Source: a bacterium | Lineage (GTDB): Bacteria; Patescibacteriota; Minisyncoccia; Ryanbacterales; GWA2-47-10b | Direction of reading: 5' to 3' | Length of the DNA: 64,000 nucleotides | NCBI GenBank assembly: GCA_027624915.1 | Contig: JAQBTR010000002.1 | Location: 30,802 to 94,801 of the forward strand | Shown here: positions 2,174 to 57,742 of the stretch, in pieces | Position numbering within the stretch: position 1 is the stretch's first letter | Layout of the letters: every line of letters starts with the position of its first letter | Notes under the pieces: generated by a model | Told to the model about the DNA's origin: nothing | Seen by the model: only the letters and a program-made list of their open reading frames with translations | The model's database searches: none | Program-made: the position numbers and the translations under genes

Positions 2174-2479
2174 ATGAATAATCTACTCATCGCTAGCATA
2201 ATTGATTTCTTGGGATTTATTATCTCGCTTTTTGCTATTTATATTGTTGCTGATAGTTCATCTCTGCTAGTCCCACCTATACGTAGAGGAGTTCTCAATT
2301 TTATTTGGGGGCTTGGTTTTATGGGCGTGGCATTTTTTTGGAGAGTAATAAGGTTCTTTTTGCCAGCATACTATTCATTTGTAGGAGATAGCTTTATTTT
2401 GTCGTTGAGCGTACTTTTGTTGCTCGTTGCCGCTTGGGATCTATTTAGAATTAAGAAAATAAATGATCATGCAGTTTGA
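2174..2479 (+). CDS. hypothetical small membrane protein
   Basis: ORF with 2-3 predicted TM helices; no recognisable family. Confidence 0.35.
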   Translation: MNNLLIASIIDFLGFIISLFAIYIVADSSSLLVPPIRRGVLNFIWGLGFMGVAFFWRVIRFFLPAYYSFVGDSFILSLSVLLLLVAAWDLFRIKKINDHAV

Positions 2480-3464
2480 TTTTGTAGGAATTGGGGATGT
2501 TGTGACAGACGCTTTTATCAAATTGGCCGATGACAATGCCGAGGTTATTAAGGGTGTTCACCAAAAGATATGTTTGAACCATCCTGATAAGATTCCTTTT
2601 GAAAGGGCTGTTGTGGTCAAGGGTGTCGGGAATGCGGCTAATGCGTGCGTGTCTGCTTCTCGTCTTGGTTTGGCAGCGGCTTTTGTGAGCAATGTTGGCG
2701 AAGACACTTTAGGCCAAGAAATGATTCAACATTTTAAAGATGAGGGTGTTAATGCCGACAATATTATTGTTAATAAAAATAAAACTTCAAACAACCACTA
2801 TGTTCTTTGGTATAAAACAGATCGAACAATTTTAATTCATCATGAAAAGTATGTATATCACTTACCATCTTTTGAAGAACCACCAAAGTGGTTTTACTTT
2901 AGTTCCATTGGTGAAGATGCGGTTGACTTTCATGATGTTGTTTCCGAATATATTGAGCAAAATCCTGAAACAAAGCTTGCGTTTCAGCCCGGTACATTTC
3001 AGATTAGGCTCGGGCCAAAAAAACTTGCTCGCATTTATAAAAATACTGAAGTCTTTTTTTGTAATAGAGAAGAGGCAATGGAAATAACAGGAATTGAAGA
3101 CCGTGAGATTGAGGGGCTTGTGCGTGCAATGCATTCATATGGACCTAGGATGGTGATTTTGACTGATGGTCCGGATGGAGCATACGCATCTGATGGTAAG
3201 CAAATATTCTTTTTGCCTCAATATCCTGATCCAGTCCCACCCCTTGAGAGGACGGGTGCTGGTGATTCGTTTTCCTCTACAGTTATTTCGTCACTAGCAC
3301 TTGGTAATTCACTCAAGACGGCTCTCATGTGGGGTCCTGTGAATTCGATGTCTGTCGTACAACACATTGGTGCGCAAGAAGGATTGTTACGGAGAACAAA
3401 GCTTGAGCAGTATTTGGAGGCCGCACCACCTGATTATAAGTCAACTATATATAAGAAACTCTAA
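2463..3464 (+). CDS. PfkB-family carbohydrate kinase (ribokinase/fructokinase-like)
   Basis: PfkB signature GAGDSF near C-terminus; N-terminal GxG motif. Confidence 0.75.
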   Translation: MIMQFDFVGIGDVVTDAFIKLADDNAEVIKGVHQKICLNHPDKIPFERAVVVKGVGNAANACVSASRLGLAAAFVSNVGEDTLGQEMIQHFKDEGVNADNIIVNKNKTSNNHYVLWYKTDRTILIHHEKYVYHLPSFEEPPKWFYFSSIGEDAVDFHDVVSEYIEQNPETKLAFQPGTFQIRLGPKKLARIYKNTEVFFCNREEAMEITGIEDREIEGLVRAMHSYGPRMVILTDGPDGAYASDGKQIFFLPQYPDPVPPLERTGAGDSFSSTVISSLALGNSLKTALMWGPVNSMSVVQHIGAQEGLLRRTKLEQYLEAAPPDYKSTIYKKL

Positions 3465-4330
3465 TGCTAAGTTTAAAAGAAGTACTAACAAATGCTACTC
3501 GCGAGCGCTGGGCGGTTCCGCATTTTAATTTTGCAAACTCATCAATGCTTGAAGCCCTAGTAGAGGCGGCAGTTGAAGCACGCTCACCACTTCTTGTTGG
3601 AACATCTGAATCAGAAAGAGATTTTATTGGCATTGAACAATGCGTGGCACTCGTAAAGAGTTATAGAGACGAACATGATATGCCAATCTATTTGAATGCA
3701 GATCACACATATTCTGTAGAAAAAGCAAAAGAAGCAATTGATGCAGGCTACGATTCTATCCATATTGATCTATCGAAGGAATCATTTGAAGACAACCTAA
3801 GGGGTACAAAAGAGGTTGTTGAATATGCAAAAAATAAAAACCCTGAGATCTCTGTTGAGGGAGAGATTGGGTATTTGGTAACAGACTCCTCCACTATCTA
3901 CAAAGACGTTATTGATGTTCCTAAGGAGAGTCTTGCAAAGCCCGATGAGGCAAAAAGATTTGTAGATGAGACGGGAGTAAATCGTCTGGCACCAGCAGTG
4001 GGAAGTATCCATGGTATTGCCGCTAACAAGCCACACTTAGATTTTGAGCTTATCTCTACACTACGAGGTTTACTTGGCGATACGGCATTTGTGCTTCATG
4101 GTGGATCTGGCGTAACTCAAGATGAAATGAAGAAAGCGGTACAAAGTGGCATTTCGAACGTTCATATTAGTACAGACCTACGAGTAGCTTTTGTGGATAA
4201 GCTTAGGGAAGAGTTGGAGAAACACAAGGATGAGTACAGGGTGTATAAGCTTTTAAAGCCTGAAATAGAAGAGGTAAAAAAGGTTGCTCTTTACAACATA
4301 GAACTTTTTGGTAGTAGGAATAAACTCTAA
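3464..4330 (+). CDS. fba: class II fructose-bisphosphate aldolase
   Basis: class II FBA motifs (VPHFNF, NADH..., HGGSG). Confidence 0.85.
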   Translation: MLSLKEVLTNATRERWAVPHFNFANSSMLEALVEAAVEARSPLLVGTSESERDFIGIEQCVALVKSYRDEHDMPIYLNADHTYSVEKAKEAIDAGYDSIHIDLSKESFEDNLRGTKEVVEYAKNKNPEISVEGEIGYLVTDSSTIYKDVIDVPKESLAKPDEAKRFVDETGVNRLAPAVGSIHGIAANKPHLDFELISTLRGLLGDTAFVLHGGSGVTQDEMKKAVQSGISNVHISTDLRVAFVDKLREELEKHKDEYRVYKLLKPEIEEVKKVALYNIELFGSRNKL

Positions 4331-4435
4331 ATTACGAAACTCACTTCTACTACGACATTGCTGTCCTGCGAACGACAGTGAGCAGTTGACAGCAAGAAGT
4401 GCTCTTGTGGTGCGAACCCGTTTCGTAATTTAGAG
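4325..4435. promoter_or_regulatory. highly structured intergenic element: 16-bp perfect inverted repeat enclosing nested and mutually exclusive hairpins
   Basis: ctctaaattacgaaac (4325-4340) pairs with gtttcgtaatttagag (4420-4435); inner pairs cacttct/agaagtg and tgctgtc/gacagca; gacag occurs twice, giving alternative pairings. Confidence 0.4.
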
Positions 4436-4459
4436 TAAAAAAGTGTAATATAAAAACAT

Positions 4460-5443
4460 ATGGTTACTAAAATATTTGTTACGCGCAAGATTCCAGACGC
4501 AGGGATAGAAATGCTTAAGGCTCCAGGCTATGAGGTGAAGGTAAGCGATAAGGATGGTGTTTTGACGAAGGATGAATTAATCGCCGAGTTAAAAACAGGA
4601 GAGTATAATGCTGTCCTATGTCTTTTGACTGACAAAATTGATACAGAAGTCTTGGATGCAGCTGGTCCTAAATGTAAGATTTTTGCTAATTATGCAGTTG
4701 GGTATGATAACATTGATGTCGAGGAGGCTCGCAAGCGAGATATTTTTGTATCAAACACACCAGGCGTACTAACTGAAACCGTTGCTGAATATACAATCTC
4801 ACTTATGTTGTCACTTGTGAGACGCATCCCAGAGGCTGATAAATTTGTTCGCGCTGGCGAATATCATGGTTGGGCGCCAATGCTTTTAATGGGGTCTGGA
4901 CTGGCTGGCAAAACATTGGGTGTTGTAGGGTTGGGGCGTATTGGTGCTCGAGTAGCACATCATGCTGTCCGAGGGTTTGATATGAAGGTTATTTACTATG
5001 ATGTAAATAGAAATGCTGATTTTGAAAAAGAATACAATGCAGGATATCGTGCTGATGTAGATCACGTTCTTACAGATGCTGATTTTGTCAGTATTCATGT
5101 GCCACTACTTGATTCCACAAAGCACCTTATTAATGATGCTAGACTTCAGCTTATGAAGAATTCTGCCTATCTGATAAATACATCGCGTGGTCCAGTAGTC
5201 GAGGAGGCGGCACTTGGTCGCGCATTAAAAGCTGGAACGATAAGGGGTGCTGCGATTGATGTATTTGAGTTTGAGCCAAAAATTGACTCCTTACTAACCG
5301 AGTTAGATAACATTGTTTTGACACCGCACATAGCATCTGCCACAGAGGAAACACGTGGCAAGATGTCAGAGCTCGCAGCGCAGAACATATTGGAGGCTTT
5401 GAGTGGGAATATCCCTCCAAACGTCATCCAAGCTCAGGGCTAG
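4460..5443 (+). CDS. D-isomer-specific 2-hydroxyacid dehydrogenase (glyoxylate/hydroxypyruvate reductase-like)
   Basis: NAD-binding GLGRIGARVA motif; overall D-2-hydroxyacid dehydrogenase family similarity. Confidence 0.8.
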   Translation: MVTKIFVTRKIPDAGIEMLKAPGYEVKVSDKDGVLTKDELIAELKTGEYNAVLCLLTDKIDTEVLDAAGPKCKIFANYAVGYDNIDVEEARKRDIFVSNTPGVLTETVAEYTISLMLSLVRRIPEADKFVRAGEYHGWAPMLLMGSGLAGKTLGVVGLGRIGARVAHHAVRGFDMKVIYYDVNRNADFEKEYNAGYRADVDHVLTDADFVSIHVPLLDSTKHLINDARLQLMKNSAYLINTSRGPVVEEAALGRALKAGTIRGAAIDVFEFEPKIDSLLTELDNIVLTPHIASATEETRGKMSELAAQNILEALSGNIPPNVIQAQG

Positions 5444-5467
5444 ATTTTTTGGCCAGTTCTGGTATAC

Positions 5468-6175
5468 TTGGTCATTATGGAACAACTTTTGGCAGAAAAA
5501 AGAGAAGTATTCGGAAAGCAACTTTCGGGGCTCCGCGCCTCTGGGCGTGTTCCTGCTATCGTATATGGAGCAGGCTCTAAAGAGTCACTATCTCTATCAG
5601 TAGTATCAGGAGATTTTGTTCGCCTTTGGAAAAAGGCTGGCGAGTCTACAATCCTTTCTCTATCCATTGATGGCGATGGAAAAAAGAACGTTTTGATTCA
5701 CGATGTGGCAATGGATCCAGTTACTCAAAAGCCACTTCATGTAGATTTCTACGAGGTGTCTAAAGACCACAAGCTTAAGGTTAATGTGCCATTTGTATTT
5801 GATGGTGAGTCGCGTGCGGTAAAAGAGCTTGGAGGTATGCTTGAGAAGGTACTTCACGATGCAGAGGTTGAAGCATTCCCTGACAAGTTACCACATGAAC
5901 TTATTATAGATATTTCTAAAATTGCAACGTTTGATGACCACATTACACTTGGCGATATCAAAATGCCTGAGGGCGCTACTCTTACGGGTGAGCCCGAAAG
6001 TTTGGTTGCAAAAGTTAACCCTCCTCGAACACAAGAAGAGCTTGATGCTGAACTCGCAGAAACTACTGATGCAAGTCTTGATGATATTGAAGTTGAAGAG
6101 AAGGGCAAGCAAGATGATGATGAGTCTGAAGGATCTGATGAGTCCTCTGAGGGTTCAAAAGAAAAGAGTGAATAA
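5468..6175 (+). CDS. rplY: ribosomal protein bL25 (general stress protein Ctc form) with acidic C-terminal tail
   Basis: L25/Ctc N-terminal and beta-barrel region similarity; Asp/Glu-rich tail. Confidence 0.8.
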   Translation: MVIMEQLLAEKREVFGKQLSGLRASGRVPAIVYGAGSKESLSLSVVSGDFVRLWKKAGESTILSLSIDGDGKKNVLIHDVAMDPVTQKPLHVDFYEVSKDHKLKVNVPFVFDGESRAVKELGGMLEKVLHDAEVEAFPDKLPHELIIDISKIATFDDHITLGDIKMPEGATLTGEPESLVAKVNPPRTQEELDAELAETTDASLDDIEVEEKGKQDDDESEGSDESSEGSKEKSE

Positions 6176-11287: not shown

Positions 11288-11314
11288 GTACATAAACAAT
11301 AAGCTACTTTTAAT

Positions 11315-11359
11315 GCGATCTAAGCCAGCCCTCGATTAGACAAACCGCTCAATCAGAAG
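11315..11359. repeat. bipartite intergenic repeat copy A (cgatctaagccagc-N16-cgctcaatcagaag)
   Basis: same two 14-nt boxes with identical 16-nt spacing recur at 25701-25744. Confidence 0.6.
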
Positions 11360-11390
11360 CATAAAAGTATCTTATTGTTTATAATGATAG

Positions 11391-11465
11391 GCCAGTATAG
11401 CTCAGTGGTAGAGCAATGCTTTTGTAAAGCATAGGTCGTGGGTTCGAATCCCTCTGCTGGCTCCA
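11391..11465 (+). tRNA. tRNA-Thr (anticodon TGT), CCA encoded
   Basis: cloverleaf folded by hand: acceptor gccagta/tgctggc, anticodon loop tttgtaa, T-loop ttcgaat. Confidence 0.85.
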
Positions 11466-17751: not shown

Positions 17752-18972
17752 ATGGAAGACCTCAATAAATCACAACTTGTACTACTTTTTATTCTTGTAA
17801 GCGTTGTTGTCTCATTTACAACGGCTATTGTGACCGCAGCACTTTATGAACAAGCACCAGTTACCTCAATTGGACAGACAATACAGAGGGTTGTAGAAAG
17901 GGTGGTACCCATTGAGAAAGATAACACCAAAATAGTGTCCGAGGAGGATAAGATAGTACGGGTTGTAGAGGAGGTATCTCCGGCTGTAGTCAGTATTATT
18001 GCCTCAAAGGATCTTCCAGTCCTTGAGCAATGTATGGTGTCTCCATTTGGAGATGGTGACGTATTTCGTCAGTTTTTCCCCGAGCTTTTGGTTCCAAGAC
18101 TCTGTGAACGTGGAACTGAGCACAGACAAGTTTCATCTGGCTCTGGTTTTATTGTTGGGGAGGATGGACTTATAGTTACCAACCGTCACGTAGTAAAAGA
18201 TACAGAAGCTACCTACACAGCAATCCTAAATGACGGTCGCCAGTTTGAGGCGACAATTCTCGCACGAGACCCACTTGAGGATTTGGCACTGCTATCTATA
18301 GATGGAGACGGATTTTCACACTTAACTCTTGGAAATTCTAATGATGTTCGCGCTGGTCAAAGTGTCATTGCCATTGGTAATGCACTTGGAGAATTTAATA
18401 ATACAGTTTCCGTTGGAGTTGTTTCTGGTTTGCGCAGGACCATTGTTGCAGGGGGTGAAGAATTCCGTTCACTCATTCAGACAGATGCCGCTATTAATCC
18501 AGGAAATTCAGGTGGGCCACTTCTTAATCTTTCAGGACAGGTTATAGGTGTTAATACGGCCGTTGCATCAAATGCAGAAAATATTGGTTTTGCTCTACCA
18601 TCACGGATAGTCCAGAAAGATATATACGACTTAGAAAAACATGGTCGCATCGTCTACCCATACTTGGGTGTTAGGTACCGTATTCTGACGAATGAAGTTA
18701 AGGATGAACTTGGCCTACCTGTAAACTATGGAGCACTTATTGTAAGTGGAGAGAGTGGAGAGCAAGCCATATCACCTGGTTCACCGGCAGCCACATCTGG
18801 GATGAAGATTGGTGATATACTATTAGAGATAGCAAGTGAGCGCATCACACGCGATAATCCTCTTGCTGAGATTCTGCAAAAGAAGTCAATAGGTGAGAAT
18901 ATATCAATTAAGCTCCTCCGTGGAGATGAGGAAATAACAATACAACTAGCATTAGGAGAAAGAAAATTTTAA
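17752..18972 (+). CDS. htrA: HtrA/DegP-family serine protease with PDZ domain
   Basis: trypsin-like catalytic triad context (TNRHVV, DLALL, GNSGGPL) plus a C-terminal PDZ-like region; N-terminal TM anchor. Confidence 0.85.
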   Translation: MEDLNKSQLVLLFILVSVVVSFTTAIVTAALYEQAPVTSIGQTIQRVVERVVPIEKDNTKIVSEEDKIVRVVEEVSPAVVSIIASKDLPVLEQCMVSPFGDGDVFRQFFPELLVPRLCERGTEHRQVSSGSGFIVGEDGLIVTNRHVVKDTEATYTAILNDGRQFEATILARDPLEDLALLSIDGDGFSHLTLGNSNDVRAGQSVIAIGNALGEFNNTVSVGVVSGLRRTIVAGGEEFRSLIQTDAAINPGNSGGPLLNLSGQVIGVNTAVASNAENIGFALPSRIVQKDIYDLEKHGRIVYPYLGVRYRILTNEVKDELGLPVNYGALIVSGESGEQAISPGSPAATSGMKIGDILLEIASERITRDNPLAEILQKKSIGENISIKLLRGDEEITIQLALGERKF

Positions 18973-19104
18973 TTCACCCGCCAAAACTTTTAAGAATAAA
19001 AGGTCAACATGAAAACACATATTAACCAAACAATCAGAATTGCACACAAAGCAGAACAATGTAATACTGCGCTTTTAGCGATTCTTAAAAGTTTAGAAGG
19101 GTAA

Positions 19105-21819
19105 ATGCCACCATTTGGAAATAACAACGGTAATCATAGTAACCCATTCAACAACTTCACCATTAAGGCGCAGGAGTCACTTAAACGTGCTCATGATTTG
19201 GCGATTGAACGAGGACAGTCCTCTTTGGGCGCGCTACATCTTTTAGCATCTCTTTTGTTGCAAGAAGAAGGTGTGATTAGTGCCGTATTAGAACGTCTTG
19301 AGATAGATTATATTCAGTTTTCTGATATAGTTTTGGATATTTTGGACGAGCGCAAGGGGACATTCGTTTTAACACCAAATCAGCAGTTTTATCTTACTCC
19401 AGAACTTGCACGAATTATTGAAGCTGCACACAAGTCAGCTAACTTCTTGAAGGATGAATATATTTCAACAGAGCACTTGTTCCTCGGTCTCTTGGAGGTT
19501 CCATCAAAGGCAAAGGAGATTCTTGAAAAGTTTAAAATTGAACGCGAGGATGTATTAAAAGCTCTTCAATCAATTCGTGGTGCGCAACATGTAACTGATG
19601 AAAATCCAGAAGCTAAGTATCAGGTTCTTGAGAAGTATGCACGCAACCTAACTGATATGGCGCGCGAGGATAAGCTTGACCCCGTTATTGGAAGAGACGA
19701 AGAAATTCGACGCGTTGTGCAGGTTCTTTCTCGCCGAACCAAAAATAATCCAGTGCTTATAGGTGAAGCTGGTGTTGGTAAGACGGCCATTGTAGATGCT
19801 ATTGCTCAACGTATTGTTGCTGATGACGTTCCAGAAAGTTTACGTGGCAAAGAAGTCGTCTCATTGGATCTTGGTTCACTTGTTGCAGGTACAAAATATC
19901 GAGGTGAATTTGAAGAGCGACTCAAGGCAGTCATGAAAGAAATTCAACGATCCAATGGGCAAATTCTTTTGTTTATTGATGAGTTACATACTCTTGTTGG
20001 CGCGGGGGCGGCGGAAGGTGCAATGGATGCTTCAAACATGTTGAAACCAGCTCTTTCACGTGGTGAACTTCGAGTTGTTGGCGCCACTACCTTAAAGGAG
20101 TATCAAAAGTATATTGAAAAAGATCCAGCGCTCACGCGTCGGTTTCAGCCGGTGTATGTTGAAGAGCCAGCCGTTGAGGATGCGATTGCAATTCTTCGTG
20201 GTCTCAAGGAAAAATATGAACTTCATCATGGAATAAAAATTACCGATTCTGCTATTCGATATTCTGTAGAACTTTCACGACGGTATATCACAGATCGGTT
20301 TTTGCCAGATAAAGCTGTAGATCTCATGGATGAGGCGGCAAGTAGTTTGCGGTTGGATCTTGAAAGTATGCCAACAGATCTTGAGAGTGTGCGACGCAAT
20401 ATCATGAGACTTGAGATTGAAAAAGAAGCGATGAAAAAAGATGGTAAGTCTAATCGCTCAATGTCTAAGCTTAATAAAGAACTTGAAACTCTCAAGGAAG
20501 AGTGTGAGAGTTTGGAAGAAAAGTGGACAAATGAAAAGGAAACCATTATGCGTATTCGCGAAATAGGCAAGGATTTAGAACGGTTACGACAAGAATCTGA
20601 TACTGCGGAACGAGACGCCGATTATAGTAAGGTGGCGGAGATTCGTTACGGTCGTATTCCGACTCTTTCTCAGTCTTTGGATGGTGAAGAAAAACGACTT
20701 AAAAAACTTCAGAATGATCGTCGTATGATTAAAGAAGAGGTTGGTCCAGAAGAGATTGCACGAGTTGTTCAGCGATGGACTGGCATTCCTGTTGAACGAA
20801 TGCTTGAAGAAGAGTCAGCAAAGCTGATGGCAATGGAGGACGAGCTCAAAAAACGAGTTGTGGGTCAGGACGCAGCAATCAAAGAAATCTCAAGTGCAAT
20901 AAGGCGCTCTCGAGCTGGTATAAGCGAAGAAGATCGACCTATCGGCTCATTTATGTTTTTGGGCCCAACCGGTGTAGGTAAAACTGAACTAGCACGCACA
21001 TTGGCAGGTTTTCTATTTAACGATGAGAAATCACTTGTACATATTGATATGTCCGAGTACATGGAAAAACATTCTGTTTCTAAATTTATTGGTTCACCAC
21101 CAGGATATGTTGGACACGATGAAGGAGGACAGTTAACGGAAACCGTGCGACATCGACCATATTCGGTTTTGCTTTTTGACGAGATTGAAAAAGCACATCC
21201 AGAAGTATTTAATATAATGCTTCAAATTCTTGATAATGGACGATTGACCGATGCCAAAGGACGTCACGTAAACTTCAAAAATACAATAATAATCATGACT
21301 TCAAACATTGGTTCTGAACTTGTTTTTGAAATGGGCAAGGTTGGTTTTCAATTGCTCGAGGAAGACGCTGACCATAAGACAAAACAAACAGAACTTCAGG
21401 ATAAAATTCGTAAAGCACTTGAGCAACGATTTCGACCTGAGTTTTTAAACCGACTTGATGGAGTCGTGGTCTTTAATTCTCTTGGTGCGAGTGAGCTAAC
21501 ACATATTGTTGATATACAGATCGAACGTGTTCGTACAAGACTTGAGAAAAAAGGTATCTCTCTCTCACTGACCACACAGGCAAAAGAGCTTTTGGTTAAG
21601 CAGGGGAATAATAAGTTTTATGGCGCACGACCACTGAAGCGGACCATCCAAAAAGAGCTCTTAAATCCCTTGGCAGAAATGCTTGTCAGTGGTAAGATGC
21701 GTGATGGCGCTACGATTACCATCGGTGTGCTTGATGGTAAATTCGTTTTTAAAACAAAACCAGCACGTAAAGTTGTATCACGTACAAAGACAAAGAAGCG
21801 TGTGATAAGCGCCAAATAA
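19105..21819 (+). CDS. clpB: ATP-dependent chaperone ClpB
   Basis: two AAA+ modules ([16 protein letters not shown] Walker A) with a long coiled-coil middle domain. Confidence 0.9.
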
Positions 21820-24258: not shown

Positions 24259-25671
24259 ATGATACGTGATGGACTTACATTCAATGATGTACTCTTGGTT
24301 CCAAAAAAGTCTGAGGTTTTTTCAAGAAAGGATATTGATACCAAGGCGTACTTAACACGACTCGTATCTATACATGTACCAATTGTCAGTGCAAACATGG
24401 ATTCTGTTACAGAATTTCAAATGGCACGAGCAATGGCAGAAAACGGTGGAATTGGAATAATCCATCGTTTTTTGTCTATTGAAGATCAGGTAGAGGAGGT
24501 TGCAAAAGTAAAGCGCGCAGAAAATACTGTCATCGAGGATCCGTACACCGTTCACCCTGATTACACTCTTTTTGATGCAAGGCGTTTTATGGAGAGCAAG
24601 TCCATATCTGGTGCCATTGTTGTAGATGACAAAAAGAAACTTGTTGGTATTATTACATCGCGAGATTTGCTTTTTGAACAAGACGACAGGAAACTTGTTA
24701 AGAATGTAATGACTCAAAAGGTGATTACAGGTGAGCCACGAATCTCACTCGATAAGGCAATTGATCTTTTGCATACTCATAGAATTGAAAAACTGCCACT
24801 CGTAACTAAAGCCGGAACATTACGAGGGCTTATTACACTTAAGGATGTTTTAAAGCGGATAAAGTATCCTCATTCTTCTAAGGATAAAAAGGGGAGACTC
24901 ATGGTGGGAGCTGCTGTTGGTGTTAAGGATGATACTTTAAAACGTACTGATGCTCTGTTACGTGCAGGGGTAGATATTATTGTTGTAGATATAGCACATG
25001 GACACAATACGCGAGCGATTACTACAACCAAGCAGATAAAAAGAAAGTTTGGTAAAAAATGTCAACTTATCGCAGGAAATGTTGCAACGCCACGTGCTGC
25101 TGAAGACTTAATAAAAGCAGGCGCTGATGGAATTAAGGTTGGCATTGGGCCAGGGGCGGCGTGTACCACGCGTATAGTAACCGGTGTTGGAGTCCCACAA
25201 CTGACAGCAATACAAGACGTTATTTCAGTGACGAAGAAGTTAAAGATTCCAATCATAGCTGATGGTGGTATTGGTAATTCGGGAGATTTTGCCAAGGCAA
25301 TAGCAGCTGGTGCACAAACAGCAATGATAGGTAGTTTGCTCGCAGGATGTGAAGAATCTCCAGGTGAATACGTTATGGAAAATGGTTCCGCATACAAACA
25401 CTACCGAGGCATGGCGAGCTATGAGGCGAGCTCTGAAAAGGTTCGTATTGATGGCGGTGGCAAAGATGGTTTTTGGCGAGCACCAGAGGGTAGGTCCGGC
25501 AAAGTTCCATACCGTGGTAAAACCTCAGGTGTTTTAAATGATCTCATGGCAGGATTGCGTAGCAGCATGAGCTATCTTGGTGCACATAATTTAAGTGAGT
25601 TTTCAAAAAACGCAGAGTTCATAAAAATGTCTCCATCTGGCATGAAAGAGTCAGATACGCGTCTTGACTAG
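24259..25671 (+). CDS. guaB: IMP dehydrogenase with CBS pair
   Basis: IMPDH catalytic loop GIGPGAACTTR, CBS domains, 470 aa. Confidence 0.85.
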   Translation: MIRDGLTFNDVLLVPKKSEVFSRKDIDTKAYLTRLVSIHVPIVSANMDSVTEFQMARAMAENGGIGIIHRFLSIEDQVEEVAKVKRAENTVIEDPYTVHPDYTLFDARRFMESKSISGAIVVDDKKKLVGIITSRDLLFEQDDRKLVKNVMTQKVITGEPRISLDKAIDLLHTHRIEKLPLVTKAGTLRGLITLKDVLKRIKYPHSSKDKKGRLMVGAAVGVKDDTLKRTDALLRAGVDIIVVDIAHGHNTRAITTTKQIKRKFGKKCQLIAGNVATPRAAEDLIKAGADGIKVGIGPGAACTTRIVTGVGVPQLTAIQDVISVTKKLKIPIIADGGIGNSGDFAKAIAAGAQTAMIGSLLAGCEESPGEYVMENGSAYKHYRGMASYEASSEKVRIDGGGKDGFWRAPEGRSGKVPYRGKTSGVLNDLMAGLRSSMSYLGAHNLSEFSKNAEFIKMSPSGMKESDTRLD

Positions 25672-25700
25672 CCACAAAAAAACAAAATTCCTGTTCCATA

Positions 25701-25744
25701 CGATCTAAGCCAGCTAGCAATGTTTCGGGACGCTCAATCAGAAG
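25701..25744. repeat. bipartite intergenic repeat copy B (cgatctaagccagc-N16-cgctcaatcagaag)
   Basis: identical boxes and spacing to 11316-11359. Confidence 0.6.
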
Positions 25745-25853
25745 TATGAACACAAATTTTGTTTTTTTGTAGTTAGCAAACGCTTGACTAGATACATATT
25801 TTAAGTTAATTTACTTGCGGACAAGGAGGTACTTATGGCACATAATTCCTGGA

Positions 25854-29169: not shown

Positions 29170-31806
29170 ATGATGAGCTTAGAGTTATTAAACAAACAGA
29201 GGAGGGCCAGAATGGCTCGCTCAAATAGGAAGACACCAAAACGAAACCCACGCATACCGTGGTCTAGTTTTTCCAAGAAATTTGTAGATCGACTTTGCCG
29301 AATGGCAACCCAGGATGAAATCCTGGATGCTGTCGCGAAAGAATGTGGCACACGTCCCACATGGAACACGACAAGCGCATATTTTTCTCGTTCTGGATTA
29401 AAGCCTAAAGTTTTTGAAGTACTTCATGTTGCTGATCGTCTTGACGGCAAGCAACAAGAGAATTTTAGAAAACTTTGGACAAGTGATGCTTCCATTTCTG
29501 ATGTGGAAGAAGTATTTCCTGGCATAAAGAGAGATGATCTCCGTCGTATTGCTCAAAGGCTTAAAGTAAAGAGGGGTTCTCGTAAGGAGCAGGACACAGC
29601 GTTCGATGAAGTTATTTCACCTTTGTCGCCAGAAGAGGCACTCGCTGAGATGACGTTGCCAGAGCGTGAATGGGACGACCCACTTCAACTAGAGATGATG
29701 CCAGGCGCATGGGCTGATCGTGCCGTTCGAATCGGACTTATGTCCGGTATCGCATATGGCAATGATGGCATGCGTGGTGGTCTCATTAATCTTGCGATGG
29801 AACTTCTTCGTGATGAGGGTATCCGCCTCATCATCAATAATGCACACGTTGTCGATGGTAAGAGTGTTGTCGGTCAAGTGGCCGAACGCACCGTTGAACT
29901 TCGAGAGGAGTCTCGCGGGCGCCGTGCCACAAGGGCTGGTAGAGAAAGATATCCCGCACTTACTCAGGCTTCGCTACGCGATAAGGCTGCAGAAGATGTT
30001 GTGCAGGCAGTAGCCAGAGACCTTTCTTCACTCATACCCCAAATTCTCCGTCCTTTACCGATGCGCGAGAAAGGACGAATTCCATTTGTAAAGATGTATA
30101 CGCTCACGACTCCAGATACCCTATCTCTCTATGATGGAAAGTATGGAGAATCTATTGCGGAAGAATTGCAACATATTCGTGACGACATCATCTTGTATGG
30201 TGCTGGTGGGGACTGGATCTATATCAGAGATTTTGATATCAAGATTGGTATTTTGAATCCCAGCAGATCTCGACTTCCTGGTAAGTACCAGAGTACAGCC
30301 GGTGAAAAAGAGATTGATGAGAAAGAACGCCAGACATCTCAAGACTTCCCAGATCTTTGGATTGTGAATCCGTTTGCAGCAGCTGTATTTCAGCCGGCAG
30401 GCATTCGCGCACGTCCATACATCATGGGACCAGCACTTCGTCGTTTGGAAGAAGTCCACACGGCCGAGAATCAGGCTGGTATCATGATTCTGGAGTATAG
30501 ACCAAATAGACAGAAGATTGTTCGTAACTATTCGTTTAGAGATTTGATTAGAGCTGAGCTTAAGACGATTGTTACTCCGCGTGGCGCAACCAAGACGCAA
30601 AAACGTATTGTTGCGACAATCGGTGAGCACGGCGCTCTTCCTATTGGTACTCTCGAAGACCGTATGCCAGGAGTGAGTCGTGCAACGATTGAACGAGAGA
30701 TTTCTGGTCTTGTAAGCTCTACAGGCAAGCTTTCTACTCGTAAGACATGGCCTGGATTGGTTTTCGATTCGAGGTCAAAGAGATACTACTTCGATGACGA
30801 GTGGATCCAGCGAAAGTTAAGATATCGTTGGCCTAAGGACTTGGTTAGTGACCGTATGCTCTTCTTCGGATGTTTGCATGCTGGGTACACAACGACAGAC
30901 TACGAGCACTTCGTAAAGGAGTACCCTCGTATCATGCTCGAGTATGGTGTTGATCATCTCTTCGGACTTGGCGACATGATCGCTGGTCTAAAGCATGGTC
31001 TTGCATGTTCCGGCGAAGTATTCGGTGGGATGAATTATACCGAGCAAGAGGTTTTTGCCGCAGAACTCGTTGCAACGGTTTTGTTCAAAACCTTCAGGGC
31101 TCGTTTGGAGGTCAAGAGAGGCAAGAAGTCCTTGTCTGACCTTTCTTCCGAAGAGCTGTCGAACCTACTTTCTGATAGCCTCGTTCACTTCCACTATATT
31201 CATGGTAATCATGATTTGTGGCAGGAATATGACGGGCAAATTCCTCTTCAGCAGTTCAACGATGTGTTGGTGAGACTCTTGCATGATGAGACTCTCAAGA
31301 TGTTGATAGAGGAGCGAGCTCCTGCTATCGATCTTTTTGAGATTTTGGCTTCAAAAACTTCTTTCTATTCTGATTTTGCTGGAGTTGCCGAATTGCCGTC
31401 TGGCATCAGGGTGTCAATGCAACATCCTCAGATGGGTCGCGCTCAAACGACAACCTTGCGTGCCCAGCATGCAATGGGAACTCGCGGCGCACAAATCTCA
31501 GCTCTTGCTAACTTCCATGCGTCTGCCACTGTCGCCCAGTGGACTTCTGATCTCGGTCAGTGTGTAGCCATGCAGGCGGGGACGCAGGTCATCTATACGC
31601 GCTTCGAGCGTCGTAAGATGAAAAAAGAAGTTGATTTCGGCCCGCTCTATCTCCATGTCCAGTCCAAGGGTGGACGAATTTATATAGATGAACGAGCGGC
31701 GTTTAATGAAAGTATTTTAAAAGTAGCTCTTAATAAGAAACACGATTCTGAAGGCCTTAAGCGAAAGCTTGGTCTACTCCGACATCCGGATCTTATTGTT
31801 AGGTGA
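29170..31806 (+). CDS. large hypothetical protein (878 aa) with C-terminal calcineurin-like metallophosphoesterase motifs, on a higher-GC island
   Basis: GCLHAG / GDMIAG / IHGNHDLW resemble phosphoesterase motifs I-III (the motif I Asp is replaced by Cys); basic N-terminus; GC about 48-55% against 40% background. Confidence 0.55.
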   Translation: MMSLELLNKQRRARMARSNRKTPKRNPRIPWSSFSKKFVDRLCRMATQDEILDAVAKECGTRPTWNTTSAYFSRSGLKPKVFEVLHVADRLDGKQQENFRKLWTSDASISDVEEVFPGIKRDDLRRIAQRLKVKRGSRKEQDTAFDEVISPLSPEEALAEMTLPEREWDDPLQLEMMPGAWADRAVRIGLMSGIAYGNDGMRGGLINLAMELLRDEGIRLIINNAHVVDGKSVVGQVAERTVELREESRGRRATRAGRERYPALTQASLRDKAAEDVVQAVARDLSSLIPQILRPLPMREKGRIPFVKMYTLTTPDTLSLYDGKYGESIAEELQHIRDDIILYGAGGDWIYIRDFDIKIGILNPSRSRLPGKYQSTAGEKEIDEKERQTSQDFPDLWIVNPFAAAVFQPAGIRARPYIMGPALRRLEEVHTAENQAGIMILEYRPNRQKIVRNYSFRDLIRAELKTIVTPRGATKTQKRIVATIGEHGALPIGTLEDRMPGVSRATIEREISGLVSSTGKLSTRKTWPGLVFDSRSKRYYFDDEWIQRKLRYRWPKDLVSDRMLFFGCLHAGYTTTDYEHFVKEYPRIMLEYGVDHLFGLGDMIAGLKHGLACSGEVFGGMNYTEQEVFAAELVATVLFKTFRARLEVKRGKKSLSDLSSEELSNLLSDSLVHFHYIHGNHDLWQEYDGQIPLQQFNDVLVRLLHDETLKMLIEERAPAIDLFEILASKTSFYSDFAGVAELPSGIRVSMQHPQMGRAQTTTLRAQHAMGTRGAQISALANFHASATVAQWTSDLGQCVAMQAGTQVIYTRFERRKMKKEVDFGPLYLHVQSKGGRIYIDERAAFNESILKVALNKKHDSEGLKRKLGLLRHPDLIVR

Positions 31807-31866: not shown

Positions 31867-32427
31867 TCACTGGTGTTCCCGTTTTATCTGGGCACGCATG
31901 CGTGCCATGATTCTTTGACTTGTTTTTTGGCCCTCTGCGTCTGTTTTTTGTGGGTAACGGATAGCTATATAGTTGACCAACAAAGAATCAAGCAGCTCAT
32001 CATCTGATGAATGTTTAAGGGGATTCAAGATGATGGTGTGTCTAAGAAGGTCGTACGTGGCCTCGCCTTTATAATCTCTCATGCAAATCACTCTAAAGTT
32101 GTTTCGAATAAGAAATTTCAATTGTGGGACCGCATTCTCTAGTGAGAGTGTATCCCACCAAAACTCACCATCCTGTGCCATAATGCGCTGAACTCCTTTT
32201 TTGATTGGCTTATGGTTACATCGCCATCCAGGATGTATGACATGAAGATACTCATGAATGAATGTATCCCACATTTCTTCAGAATTGCTGTGTTTCCTCG
32301 GGTCAATGATTACTGTTTTAGTATCTTCATCACAGAGACCCCATGCATGACCACCATTTTTTTCAGGGTACAGTTTGTCGTATTCTACAGACCATCCTTT
32401 GTTCATCAGCGCTTGAAGGCGCTTCAT
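31867..32427 (-). CDS. SprT-like (HExxH) zinc metalloprotease domain protein
   Basis: GLCDEDTKTVIID...FIHEYLHVIH matches the SprT-like/WLM pattern; start set at ATG 32427 with a GGGAGG RBS, the track ORF is longer. Confidence 0.55.
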   Translation of the reverse strand: MKRLQALMNKGWSVEYDKLYPEKNGGHAWGLCDEDTKTVIIDPRKHSNSEEMWDTFIHEYLHVIHPGWRCNHKPIKKGVQRIMAQDGEFWWDTLSLENAVPQLKFLIRNNFRVICMRDYKGEATYDLLRHTIILNPLKHSSDDELLDSLLVNYIAIRYPQKTDAEGQKTSQRIMARMRAQIKREHQ

Positions 32428-51262: not shown

Positions 51263-51303
51263 TGGACATGGTAAGAATTGAACCCATCATAAATTGGTTA
51301 TTT

Positions 51304-51334
51304 TTCAACGGCTCATTTTTGAGCCGTTGAAAAT
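51304..51334. repeat. palindromic repeated element, copy 1 (ttcaacggctca-ttttt-tgagccgttgaaaat), core of a roughly 75-nt repeat
   Basis: near-identical copy at 57712-57742; flanking similarity extends both sides. Confidence 0.7.
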
Positions 51335-57160: not shown

Positions 57161-57217
57161 GGATAGTCGGCAACGGTGTTTTCTATCCGCCCATTGCATA
57201 GACGTAGTGAACTTTGT

Positions 57218-57280
57218 CCGCCTGTAGCTCAGTCGGTGGAGGTGAGTCTTCTGGGAGAAGACGAACCACTTTTAAGGGGA
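57218..57280 (+). pseudogene. degenerate tRNA-Lys-like copy (first 22+ nt identical to tRNA-Lys, hairpin inserted between D-arm and anticodon loop)
   Basis: ccgcctgtagctcagtcggtggag + hairpin gtcttct-ggg-agaagac + ccacttttaagggga. Confidence 0.5.
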
Positions 57281-57321
57281 TTTGAAAATTTAATATAAAC
57301 TCGGATTATCGTTAGCAAAGT

Positions 57322-57394
57322 CCGCCTGTAGCTCAGTCGGTAGAGCAGCTCCCTTTTAAGGAGATGGTCGTAGGTTCGATTCCTACCAGGCGGA
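57322..57394 (+). tRNA. tRNA-Lys (anticodon TTT), CCA not encoded
   Basis: acceptor ccgcctg/caggcgg, D-arm gctcagtcggtagagc, anticodon loop cttttaa, T-loop ttcgatt. Confidence 0.8.
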
Positions 57395-57404
57395 CTTTGA
57401 ATGG

Positions 57405-57436
57405 GATAATCCGAGTTCGATTCCTACCAGGCGGAC
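57405..57436 (+). repeat. inverted repeat (gataatccgag, partner ctcggattatc at 57300-57310) followed by a 22-nt duplicate of the tRNA-Lys 3' end
   Basis: gttcgattcctaccaggcggac is identical to the tRNA-Lys T-arm/acceptor 3' region; 11-bp IR brackets the intact tRNA. Confidence 0.55.
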
Positions 57437-57454
57437 AAAATTCAGTACACTAAA

Positions 57455-57533
57455 ACTCAGTCGGTGGAGAATAGGAGACATAGCAGGTCTCCTATTCCAC
57501 TTTTAAGAAGCTAGCCGTAGGTTCAGGGCGGAC
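57455..57533 (+). pseudogene. second degenerate tRNA-Lys-like copy with inserted hairpin
   Basis: actcagtcggtggag + hairpin aataggagac-atagcag-gtctcctatt + ccacttttaagaag...ccgtaggttcagggcggac. Confidence 0.5.
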
Positions 57534-57711
57534 GGGGTGATATGGTCAAAAAAAGTGCTATTGTGGTTCTGAAGTACAAAAGGAGCTGAAATGGACATAG
57601 TATATGATATGCTTAGAATGATCGGTACGGTAGACTACCCTGGTAAAAAGTAATTAAATAGCAACAACTTTCAGAACCTCTTTTCTGGTGGTTAGAACTT
57701 TTATGTGAAAA

Positions 57712-57742
57712 TTCAACGGCTCATATATGAGCCGTTGAAAAT
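57712..57742. repeat. palindromic repeated element, copy 2 (ttcaacggctca-tatat-tgagccgttgaaaat)
   Basis: matches 51304-51334 except the loop; flanks also similar. Confidence 0.7.

Follow-up and report, generated by a model that had tools for sequence, protein, structure and literature searches.

We describe a 111-bp hairpin at the end of the class II fructose-bisphosphate aldolase gene (fba) of a bacterium of the Ryanbacterales (Patescibacteriota). It lies upstream of a D-2-hydroxyacid dehydrogenase gene in contig JAQBTR010000002.1 of assembly GCA_027624915.1. The window, by which we mean the whole stretch of DNA that was analysed, comprises 64,000 nucleotides (positions 30,802 to 94,801 of the contig). 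With a probability of roughly 0.9, the hairpin is a non-coding MITE (miniature inverted-repeat transposable element) that has the ends of a ~1-kb IS982-like insertion sequence (IS) common in Patescibacteria and that inserted at the end of fba. It is not a riboswitch, attenuator, ribozyme or terminator. Several properties of a MITE are found together here: the element is small and non-coding, it is bounded by terminal inverted repeats, its ends are common to a transposase-encoding IS, and an empty site is present in a distant relative.

The hairpin and its dispersed family

The original prediction, which was made from the sequence of the window, described a perfect 16-bp outer stem that encloses nested stems. 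An inverted-repeat search confirmed that the two outer arms (Table 1) are exact complements over 16 bp. The repeat can even be lengthened to 17 bp (4324-4340 and 4420-4436) by pairing A4324 with T4436, and 79 nt separate the arms. Both nested stems are also present, CACTTCT/AGAAGTG at 4342-4348 and 4395-4401 and TTGCTGTC/GACAGCAA at 4358-4365 and 4388-4395. No inverted-repeat seeds of 14 or 16 nt within 130 nt were found in mononucleotide shuffles of the window. The plus strand folds as RNA with -49.3 kcal/mol, compared with -23.7 ± 3.5 kcal/mol for its shuffles (z = -7.2; 0 of 200 shuffles were as good). The z-score is -5.3 against shuffles for RNA of the minus strand and -6.8 for the single-stranded DNA. 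Only spurious open reading frames (ORFs) of 41 and 53 aa span the element.

The arms of the hairpin match the terminal repeat of a dispersed family and of an IS, CTTTGAATTACGAAAC, at 14 of 16 bases, with the same two substitutions in both arms. Scanning metagenomes with the pattern AATTACGAAAC-N55-85-GTTTCGTAATT revealed at least 120 loci. From the matches listed we extracted 124 unique copies, and several contigs among these matches carry two. A stricter pattern, TAAATTACGAAAC-N60-90-GTTTCGTAATTTA, was applied to the GTDB species genomes and gave one match, a 93-bp hairpin with a different interior in a Patescibacteria metagenome-assembled genome, where it sits between an ORF for a small membrane protein and one for a protein like ATP-synthase subunit a.

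Three properties of these copies, the outer pentamers, the length and the flanking repeats, lie outside the search pattern and therefore provide independent evidence of relatedness. The outer pentamers are conserved as CTKTG on the left and CAMAG on the right, with G at -1 in 105 and T at -2 in 112 of 122 copies. Those of the window copy are CTCTA and TAGAG. The length between the core ends has its mode at 99-101 nt in the family and is 101 nt in the window copy; at full length the family elements have a mode of ~110 bp. Perfect direct repeats of 5-8 bp abut the 16-bp ends in 80 of the 124 copies, and they measure exactly 7 bp in 46. In a control in which the left 7-mer was shifted outward, one 7/7 match was obtained. 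The flanking repeats vary from copy to copy, mostly between 6 and 8 bp and usually at 7 bp. The combination of inverted repeats and variable direct repeats identifies the family ends as terminal inverted repeats with target-site duplications, a pattern that marks transposition. Insertion targets are rich in A and T, roughly T-A-A-W-T-W-A, usually with T first and A last, and this consensus accounts for the 17th base pair of the window hairpin. An A precedes the ends in 83 of 122 copies, where it is part of the duplicated target.

The interiors of the 124 copies fall into 28 unrelated clusters, the dominant type, of 100 nt, accounting for 65 copies. Among those that could be evaluated, 77 of 90 copies touch no long open frame. 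The original prediction also listed a MITE among its alternatives, and this is the one supported by the ends, the target-site duplications of the family and the IS982-like partner described below. It had further reasoned that a MITE would be present in many dispersed, identical copies. Many dispersed copies with common ends do exist; they are not identical, since the interior of the window element is a singleton in the family, and the scaffold holds one copy in the ~78 kb that was read. This scaffold is a 90-kb metagenome scaffold (ENA ERZ23495043, SAMN03444961), and the ~78 kb consist of the window with 8.1 kb on its left and 5.8 kb on its right. The inner stems of the element reflect the palindromic build typical of the family, not a regulatory switch.

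Two other classes of element were considered and rejected. The outer ends of the window copy, if read as CTC-TA...TA-GAG, and locus L004 of the family prompted us to consider an IS630/mariner-type MITE that would have duplicated TA within a CTAG target; the family has CTKTG/CAMAG ends and 7-bp duplications. The second was an integron attC site. Such sites are imperfect hairpins of 55-140 bp between co-directional genes, a description that the fba hairpin shares. The hairpin is also single-copy in the accessible scaffold and has a unique interior, as would be expected if it were attC-like or if a palindrome that had arisen by chance or locally, for example by template switching in replication, merely resembled the family ends. 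However, each arm agrees with the IS end in 14 of 16 positions, the length is the modal length of the family, and the copies of the family have variable flanking direct repeats, unlike attC sites. The motifs ACGAAAC and GTTTCGT misfit the attC cores RYYYAAC and GTTRRRY, and the neighbours are conserved, syntenic genes of core metabolism rather than cassettes. We rejected the attC site on the core misfit, the target duplications of the family and the lack of a cassette context, and we consider any origin of this kind extremely improbable.

As a separate observation on the family, several otherwise different MITE subfamilies (L004 1787-1875, L029, L037, L054, L057, L063, L077 and L085) have in common a G-rich motif at the apex, GGGGTTGGG(N)GGGGACTGGCC or its complement. 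This motif may fold into a G-quadruplex or represent a functional core that the hairpins conserve.

A transposase-bearing partner

Unpaired family ends in the fetched loci led to a complete IS of 991 bp (L116, 1847-2837). It has the ends CTTTGAATTACGAAAC and GTTTCGTAATTCAAAG and is flanked by a 7-bp duplication, TAAATTA. Its ORF of 266 aa matches PF13612 (DDE_Tnp_1_3) with 95 bits (cut-off 27; E = 6e-27), and the best NCBIfam family is IS982 (E = 1e-30, 107 bits). A 100-nt MITE is located 160 bp from this IS. Two more copies of the transposase, ~62% identical, were found in L112 and L118, and the same left end was seen in L118. At E <= 1e-10, 2036 homologues of the transposase were counted; those with a named source belong to Nomurabacteria, Taylorbacteria and the Parcubacteria group. 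Most of the contigs that carry it are ~1 kb long, which is expected because repeats break assemblies. Eight further loci (L135-L142) have an 87%-identical transposase; six of them show both ends of a 995-bp IS, which are again CTTTGAATTACGAAAC ends, and two (L140 and L141) the left end only. Two of the IS copies, in L139 and L142, are flanked by perfect 7-bp duplications, AAACATA and TATGTAA.

Some loci of the partner show rearranged ends. In L118 (4040-5075), the transposase of the IS982-like copy seems to be interrupted by an in-frame TGA; the right end of this copy differs from the expected terminus, and a 100-nt MITE abuts or replaces it, which suggests a nested insertion or an end replacement between IS and MITE. 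In L135-L138, from groundwater metagenomes, the 995-bp IS has mixed flanks (TTAATAT...TACCCAA, TACCCAA...TTAATAA and TTAATAT...TTAATAA), indicating recombination between copies or chimeric assembly over the repeat.

According to a review of the family (PMC7335449), IS982 elements are ~1 kb long, have variable direct repeats that include 7 bp, and start their inverted repeats with 5'-AC in 57 of 69 members. The partner resembles this family in its length of 991-995 bp, its single DDE transposase ORF and its short terminal inverted repeats, and its 7-bp direct repeat is that listed for IS1187; its transposase of 266 aa is shorter than the 294 and 326 aa given for two IS982-family transposases (PMC7335449). 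A documented case of an IS982-derived MITE is MITECca01, which derives from ISCca4 (IS982 family) in the Cardinium endosymbiont of Oedothorax gibbosus (PMC9769881). MITECca01 and the fba element are both short and non-coding, have inverted repeats that match a co-occurring IS982-family IS (at the level of the family in our case) and are presumably moved in trans. MITECca01 is ~240 bp long and high-copy in one genome (PMC9769881), whereas the fba element is 111 bp long, unrelated in sequence, resident in Patescibacteria and single-copy in the accessible scaffold. Unlike MITECca01, the family of the fba element has at least 28 unrelated interior types on one end sequence. In full-text literature searches, we found no account of MITEs from Patescibacteria or the candidate phyla radiation (CPR), and no paper on an IS982-like IS with a large derived family of hairpin MITEs in Patescibacteria.

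The fba junction before and after the probable insertion

All the genes around the element lie on the plus strand. They encode, in this order, transketolase, a PfkB kinase, the class II aldolase, the D-2-hydroxyacid dehydrogenase, ribosomal protein L25 and a protein with an SLT domain, and the order is conserved in relatives. The closest named homologues of the dehydrogenase are 65-69% identical and come from Candidatus Ryanbacteria, the Parcubacteria group and Patescibacteria. In one relative (L131), a spacer of only 12 nt, free of any element, separates the fba stop from the dehydrogenase start. Other syntenic relatives have a small extra ORF at this junction; the element itself is missing there from the syntenic relatives.

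Aldolase homologues end in ...LFGS-A/S-G-K/R-V/I-stop, and the window protein, of equal length, ends in ...LFGSRNKL-stop. Its last codon, CTC (Leu, 4325-4327), and its stop, TAA (4328-4330), are in the left arm of the element. The element does lie in the spacer between fba and the dehydrogenase gene, as originally described, and yet it is not purely intergenic. Removing 4325-4442 in silico, that is, the 111-bp element with one 7-bp repeat, yields ...GGT AGT AGG AAT AAA GTG TAA, which encodes ...GSRNKV-stop. The restored junction has an 11-nt spacer and is colinear with that of L131. The displaced K-V-stop and the colinear restored junction indicate that integration took place between the penultimate and the final sense codon of fba. 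In the fba frame, a codon and a stop would likewise result from the consensus end CTT TGA, and one family copy (L067) likewise terminates a long open frame at position 6.

Combining these observations, we propose the following course of events. The 16-bp ends of the element would be the recognition ends of the IS982-like IS. Having no transposase of its own, the element may be moved in trans by the DDE transposase of a full-length copy elsewhere, which would bind both ends and integrate the element at an AT-rich target with a 7-bp staggered cut. Repair of this cut would produce the flanking direct repeats, which are themselves seen in the sequences. Insertion ahead of the final sense codon of fba pushed the Val-stop (GTG TAA) 118 bp downstream, and the element end now supplies a Leu-stop (CTC TAA), so that the length of the aldolase did not change. 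The long perfect stem is the pair of transposon ends. Movement in trans, the time of insertion and any effect on expression are what we infer rather than demonstrate.

Table 1. Features of the fba-dehydrogenase junction (window coordinates)
Feature	Position	Strand	Basis and remarks
Left flanking 7-mer GAATAAA	4318..4324		Presumed left target-site duplication; within codons (ag)G AAT AAA of fba
Left terminal inverted repeat CTCTAAATTACGAAAC	4325..4340		Complement of 4420-4435; 14/16 against family/IS end CTTTGAATTACGAAAC
Imperfectly palindromic non-coding interior with nested stems	4341..4419		Stem search and fold
Right terminal inverted repeat GTTTCGTAATTTAGAG	4420..4435		Complement of left arm; family/IS end comparison
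Right flanking 7-mer TAAAAAA	4436..4442		Presumed right target-site duplication; first T pairs with A4324
Relic of original fba 3' end, AAA GTG TAA (Lys-Val-stop)	4440..4448	+	fba homologue ends
Class II fructose-bisphosphate aldolase (fba), 288 aa	3464..4330	+	ORF; PF01116
D-2-hydroxyacid (glycerate/glyoxylate) dehydrogenase	4460..5443	+	ORF; PF00389, PF02826; start 24 nt past element

The wider neighbourhood was also noted. In the window (2463-5443) and in L133 (1-12480), fba belongs to a long co-directional block with genes for GAPDH, RpiB, Rpe, transketolase halves, the PfkB kinase, the aldolase and the 2-hydroxyacid dehydrogenase, followed by ribosomal protein L25. The order of this sugar-phosphate block is kept across Parcubacteria relatives at 67-69% amino-acid identity.

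Regulatory readings, counter-evidence and implications

The original prediction favoured a cis-regulatory RNA or attenuator, in which a duplicated GACAG would pair with CTGTC in two mutually exclusive ways. A locally evolved riboswitch platform or attenuator that controls the dehydrogenase through these pairings would fit the nested stems, the GACAG duplicate and the position of the element directly upstream of a gene start. GACAG is indeed present twice (4373-4377 and 4388-4392). However, when CTGTC is constrained to pair with the proximal GACAG, the energy is -26.8 kcal/mol, compared with -48.3 kcal/mol in the best fold; at ~21 kcal/mol worse, the second pairing is not a competing state, and the proposed switch does not hold. 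The original prediction correctly remarked that no T-run follows the stem. The sequence 3' of the stem is TAAAAAAG, and a terminator scan of 3300-5600 found no terminator-like site. The GC-rich hairpin followed by a T-run that makes a Rho-independent terminator is absent, and terminator/anti-terminator logic is impossible without a U-run. Near-equal competing folds coupled to a terminator or to sequestration of a ribosome-binding site, which would mark a riboswitch or attenuator, were not found at the element, nor was a known aptamer or leader family or a conserved orthologous site.

A scan with Rfam (release 15), the first check named in the original prediction, yielded no match to the element. 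At gathering thresholds it returned only six tRNAs in the whole window, and at E <= 10 nothing meaningful around the element; two sRNA models near it, far under the Rfam thresholds, cover chiefly fba coding sequence. Representatives of the related family elements also gave no Rfam match. The suggestion of a ribozyme-like element fails on the same blank, even at E <= 10, and on the absence of the element from the fba-dehydrogenase junction of syntenic relatives. SRP/4.5S RNA or another small RNA, prompted by the size and the long hairpin, was rejected because Rfam is blank at gathering thresholds and at E <= 10. Together with the ends, which the element has in common with a transposon family that shows target duplications and has a partner encoding a transposase, these results largely refute the riboswitch or attenuator reading, for which we see hardly any probability. 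An outward promoter at the right end was also rejected, as no sigma-70-like site was called and the -35 candidates found by eye match only 3 of 6 bases.

A role at the RNA level could also have been acquired by a former MITE. The ~-48 kcal/mol hairpin in a pfkB-fba-dehydrogenase-rplY transcript might serve as an RNase III-type processing site, a stabiliser of the fba mRNA 3' end or a partial transcription block, and thereby uncouple fba from the dehydrogenase. The fold is very stable on both strands, and the co-directional neighbours, 12 nt apart in a relative, suggest co-transcription. Divergence of the flanking repeats next to perfect arms could mean that the stem is under selection; perfect arms are accounted for equally well if the insertion was recent and its duplication imprecise or 4 bp long. 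The interior has no conservation from which selection could be inferred, and the stem lacks a T-run. We regard such a role as unlikely. A broader proposal, which is rather improbable, is that hairpin MITEs form an undescribed and unusually diversified superfamily in Patescibacteria, in which at least 28 unrelated palindromic types of ~80-130 bp have one 16-bp IS982-like end and several also have the G-rich apical motif GGGGTTGGGNGGGGACTGGCC. Its hairpin body might be selected as a structure in single-stranded DNA or RNA that aids transposition, or as an operon-internal RNA processing signal, and the window copy, whose arms are perfect although its flanking repeats have decayed, might have been exapted and act on the expression of fba and the dehydrogenase.

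The Correia elements (CREE/NEMIS) of Neisseria provide a model for such possible RNA-level side effects. They are hairpin MITEs of ~100-155 bp with near-perfect or perfect terminal repeats, are co-transcribed with genes and, like the fba element, lie between genes or at their ends. They have been reported to uncouple the expression of adjoining operon genes. Correia elements duplicate TA and have 26-bp repeats, whereas the family described here has a 7-bp duplication and 16-bp repeats. Its parent IS has been identified; to our knowledge, Correia elements have no known autonomous partner.

Several observations weigh against the interpretation of the hairpin as an IS982-related MITE. Its flanking 7-mers match at 5 of 7 positions despite the perfect 16-bp arms, which is unusual for an old insertion, and a perfect 4-bp TAAA that abuts both ends offers an alternative reading of the duplication. 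No related interior was found in the 124 family copies, and no second copy and no transposase in the ~78 kb of scaffold. The closest relatives share only ~67-69% protein identity, making the empty site a distant comparison rather than one with a sister strain; in the protein collection, where the best match is 69% identical, there were no close relatives that could provide a true empty-site allele. The assignment to IS982 is loose, as the 107 bits of the partner transposase compare with a curated NCBIfam cut-off of 130. The partner ends start with 5'-CT (5'-CTTTG) and not with the 5'-AC that is typical of IS982 (PMC7335449); their fit to AC(N)6T(N)5TT stops at the first T. The imperfect flanks beside perfect arms would fit a true duplication of 4 bp (TAAA), a left copy that drifted under coding constraint, or a stem kept by selection. 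The partner is best called a distant IS982-like element.

Other repeats were noticed in the window. A tRNA-Lys(ttt) gene (57322-57395) lies amid partial tRNA-Lys-like fragments (57200-57540): a copy of the 5' half (GTCCGCCTGTAGCTCAGTCGGTGGAG...) begins near 57216, a copy of the T-arm/acceptor 3' end (GTTCGATTCCTACCAGGCGGAC) is located at ~57417-57438, and a further tRNA-like stretch at ~57455-57535. Together they yield inverted and direct repeats of 21-31 nt; integrated elements may have left them as remnants of att sites, or they may be tRNA duplicates that have decayed. A perfect palindrome, TTCAACGGCTCA...TGAGCCGTTGAA, occurs twice, at 51302-51333 and 57712-57739, ~6.4 kb apart, and may represent a hairpin used repeatedly, for example a terminator, a REP-like sequence or an operator site. 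Four imperfect inverted repeats (25668-25776, 18972-19106, 11292-11382 and 32231-32341) have arms of 21-29 nt that are 77-95% complementary and 49-83 nt apart. They are MITE-like in size, and their ends are unrelated to those of the fba element. The one at 11292-11382 is just upstream of a tRNA-Thr gene at 11391.

Reading the hairpin as a MITE removes a false candidate riboswitch from the annotation and implies that the annotated C-terminus and stop codon of the aldolase derive from a transposon end. The case is a small, clear example of a transposon end that provides the stop codon of a gene, and in all other respects the insertion of an ordinary mobile element. Transcription of the operon through the element would yield an mRNA with a ~-48 kcal/mol hairpin 24 nt before the dehydrogenase start codon. 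The conserved 16-bp end offers a simple marker for masking or tracking the elements, and the repeats probably help to fragment CPR assemblies. The tiny, streamlined genomes of Patescibacteria carry an active-looking IS982-like IS together with a large derived family of hairpin MITEs.

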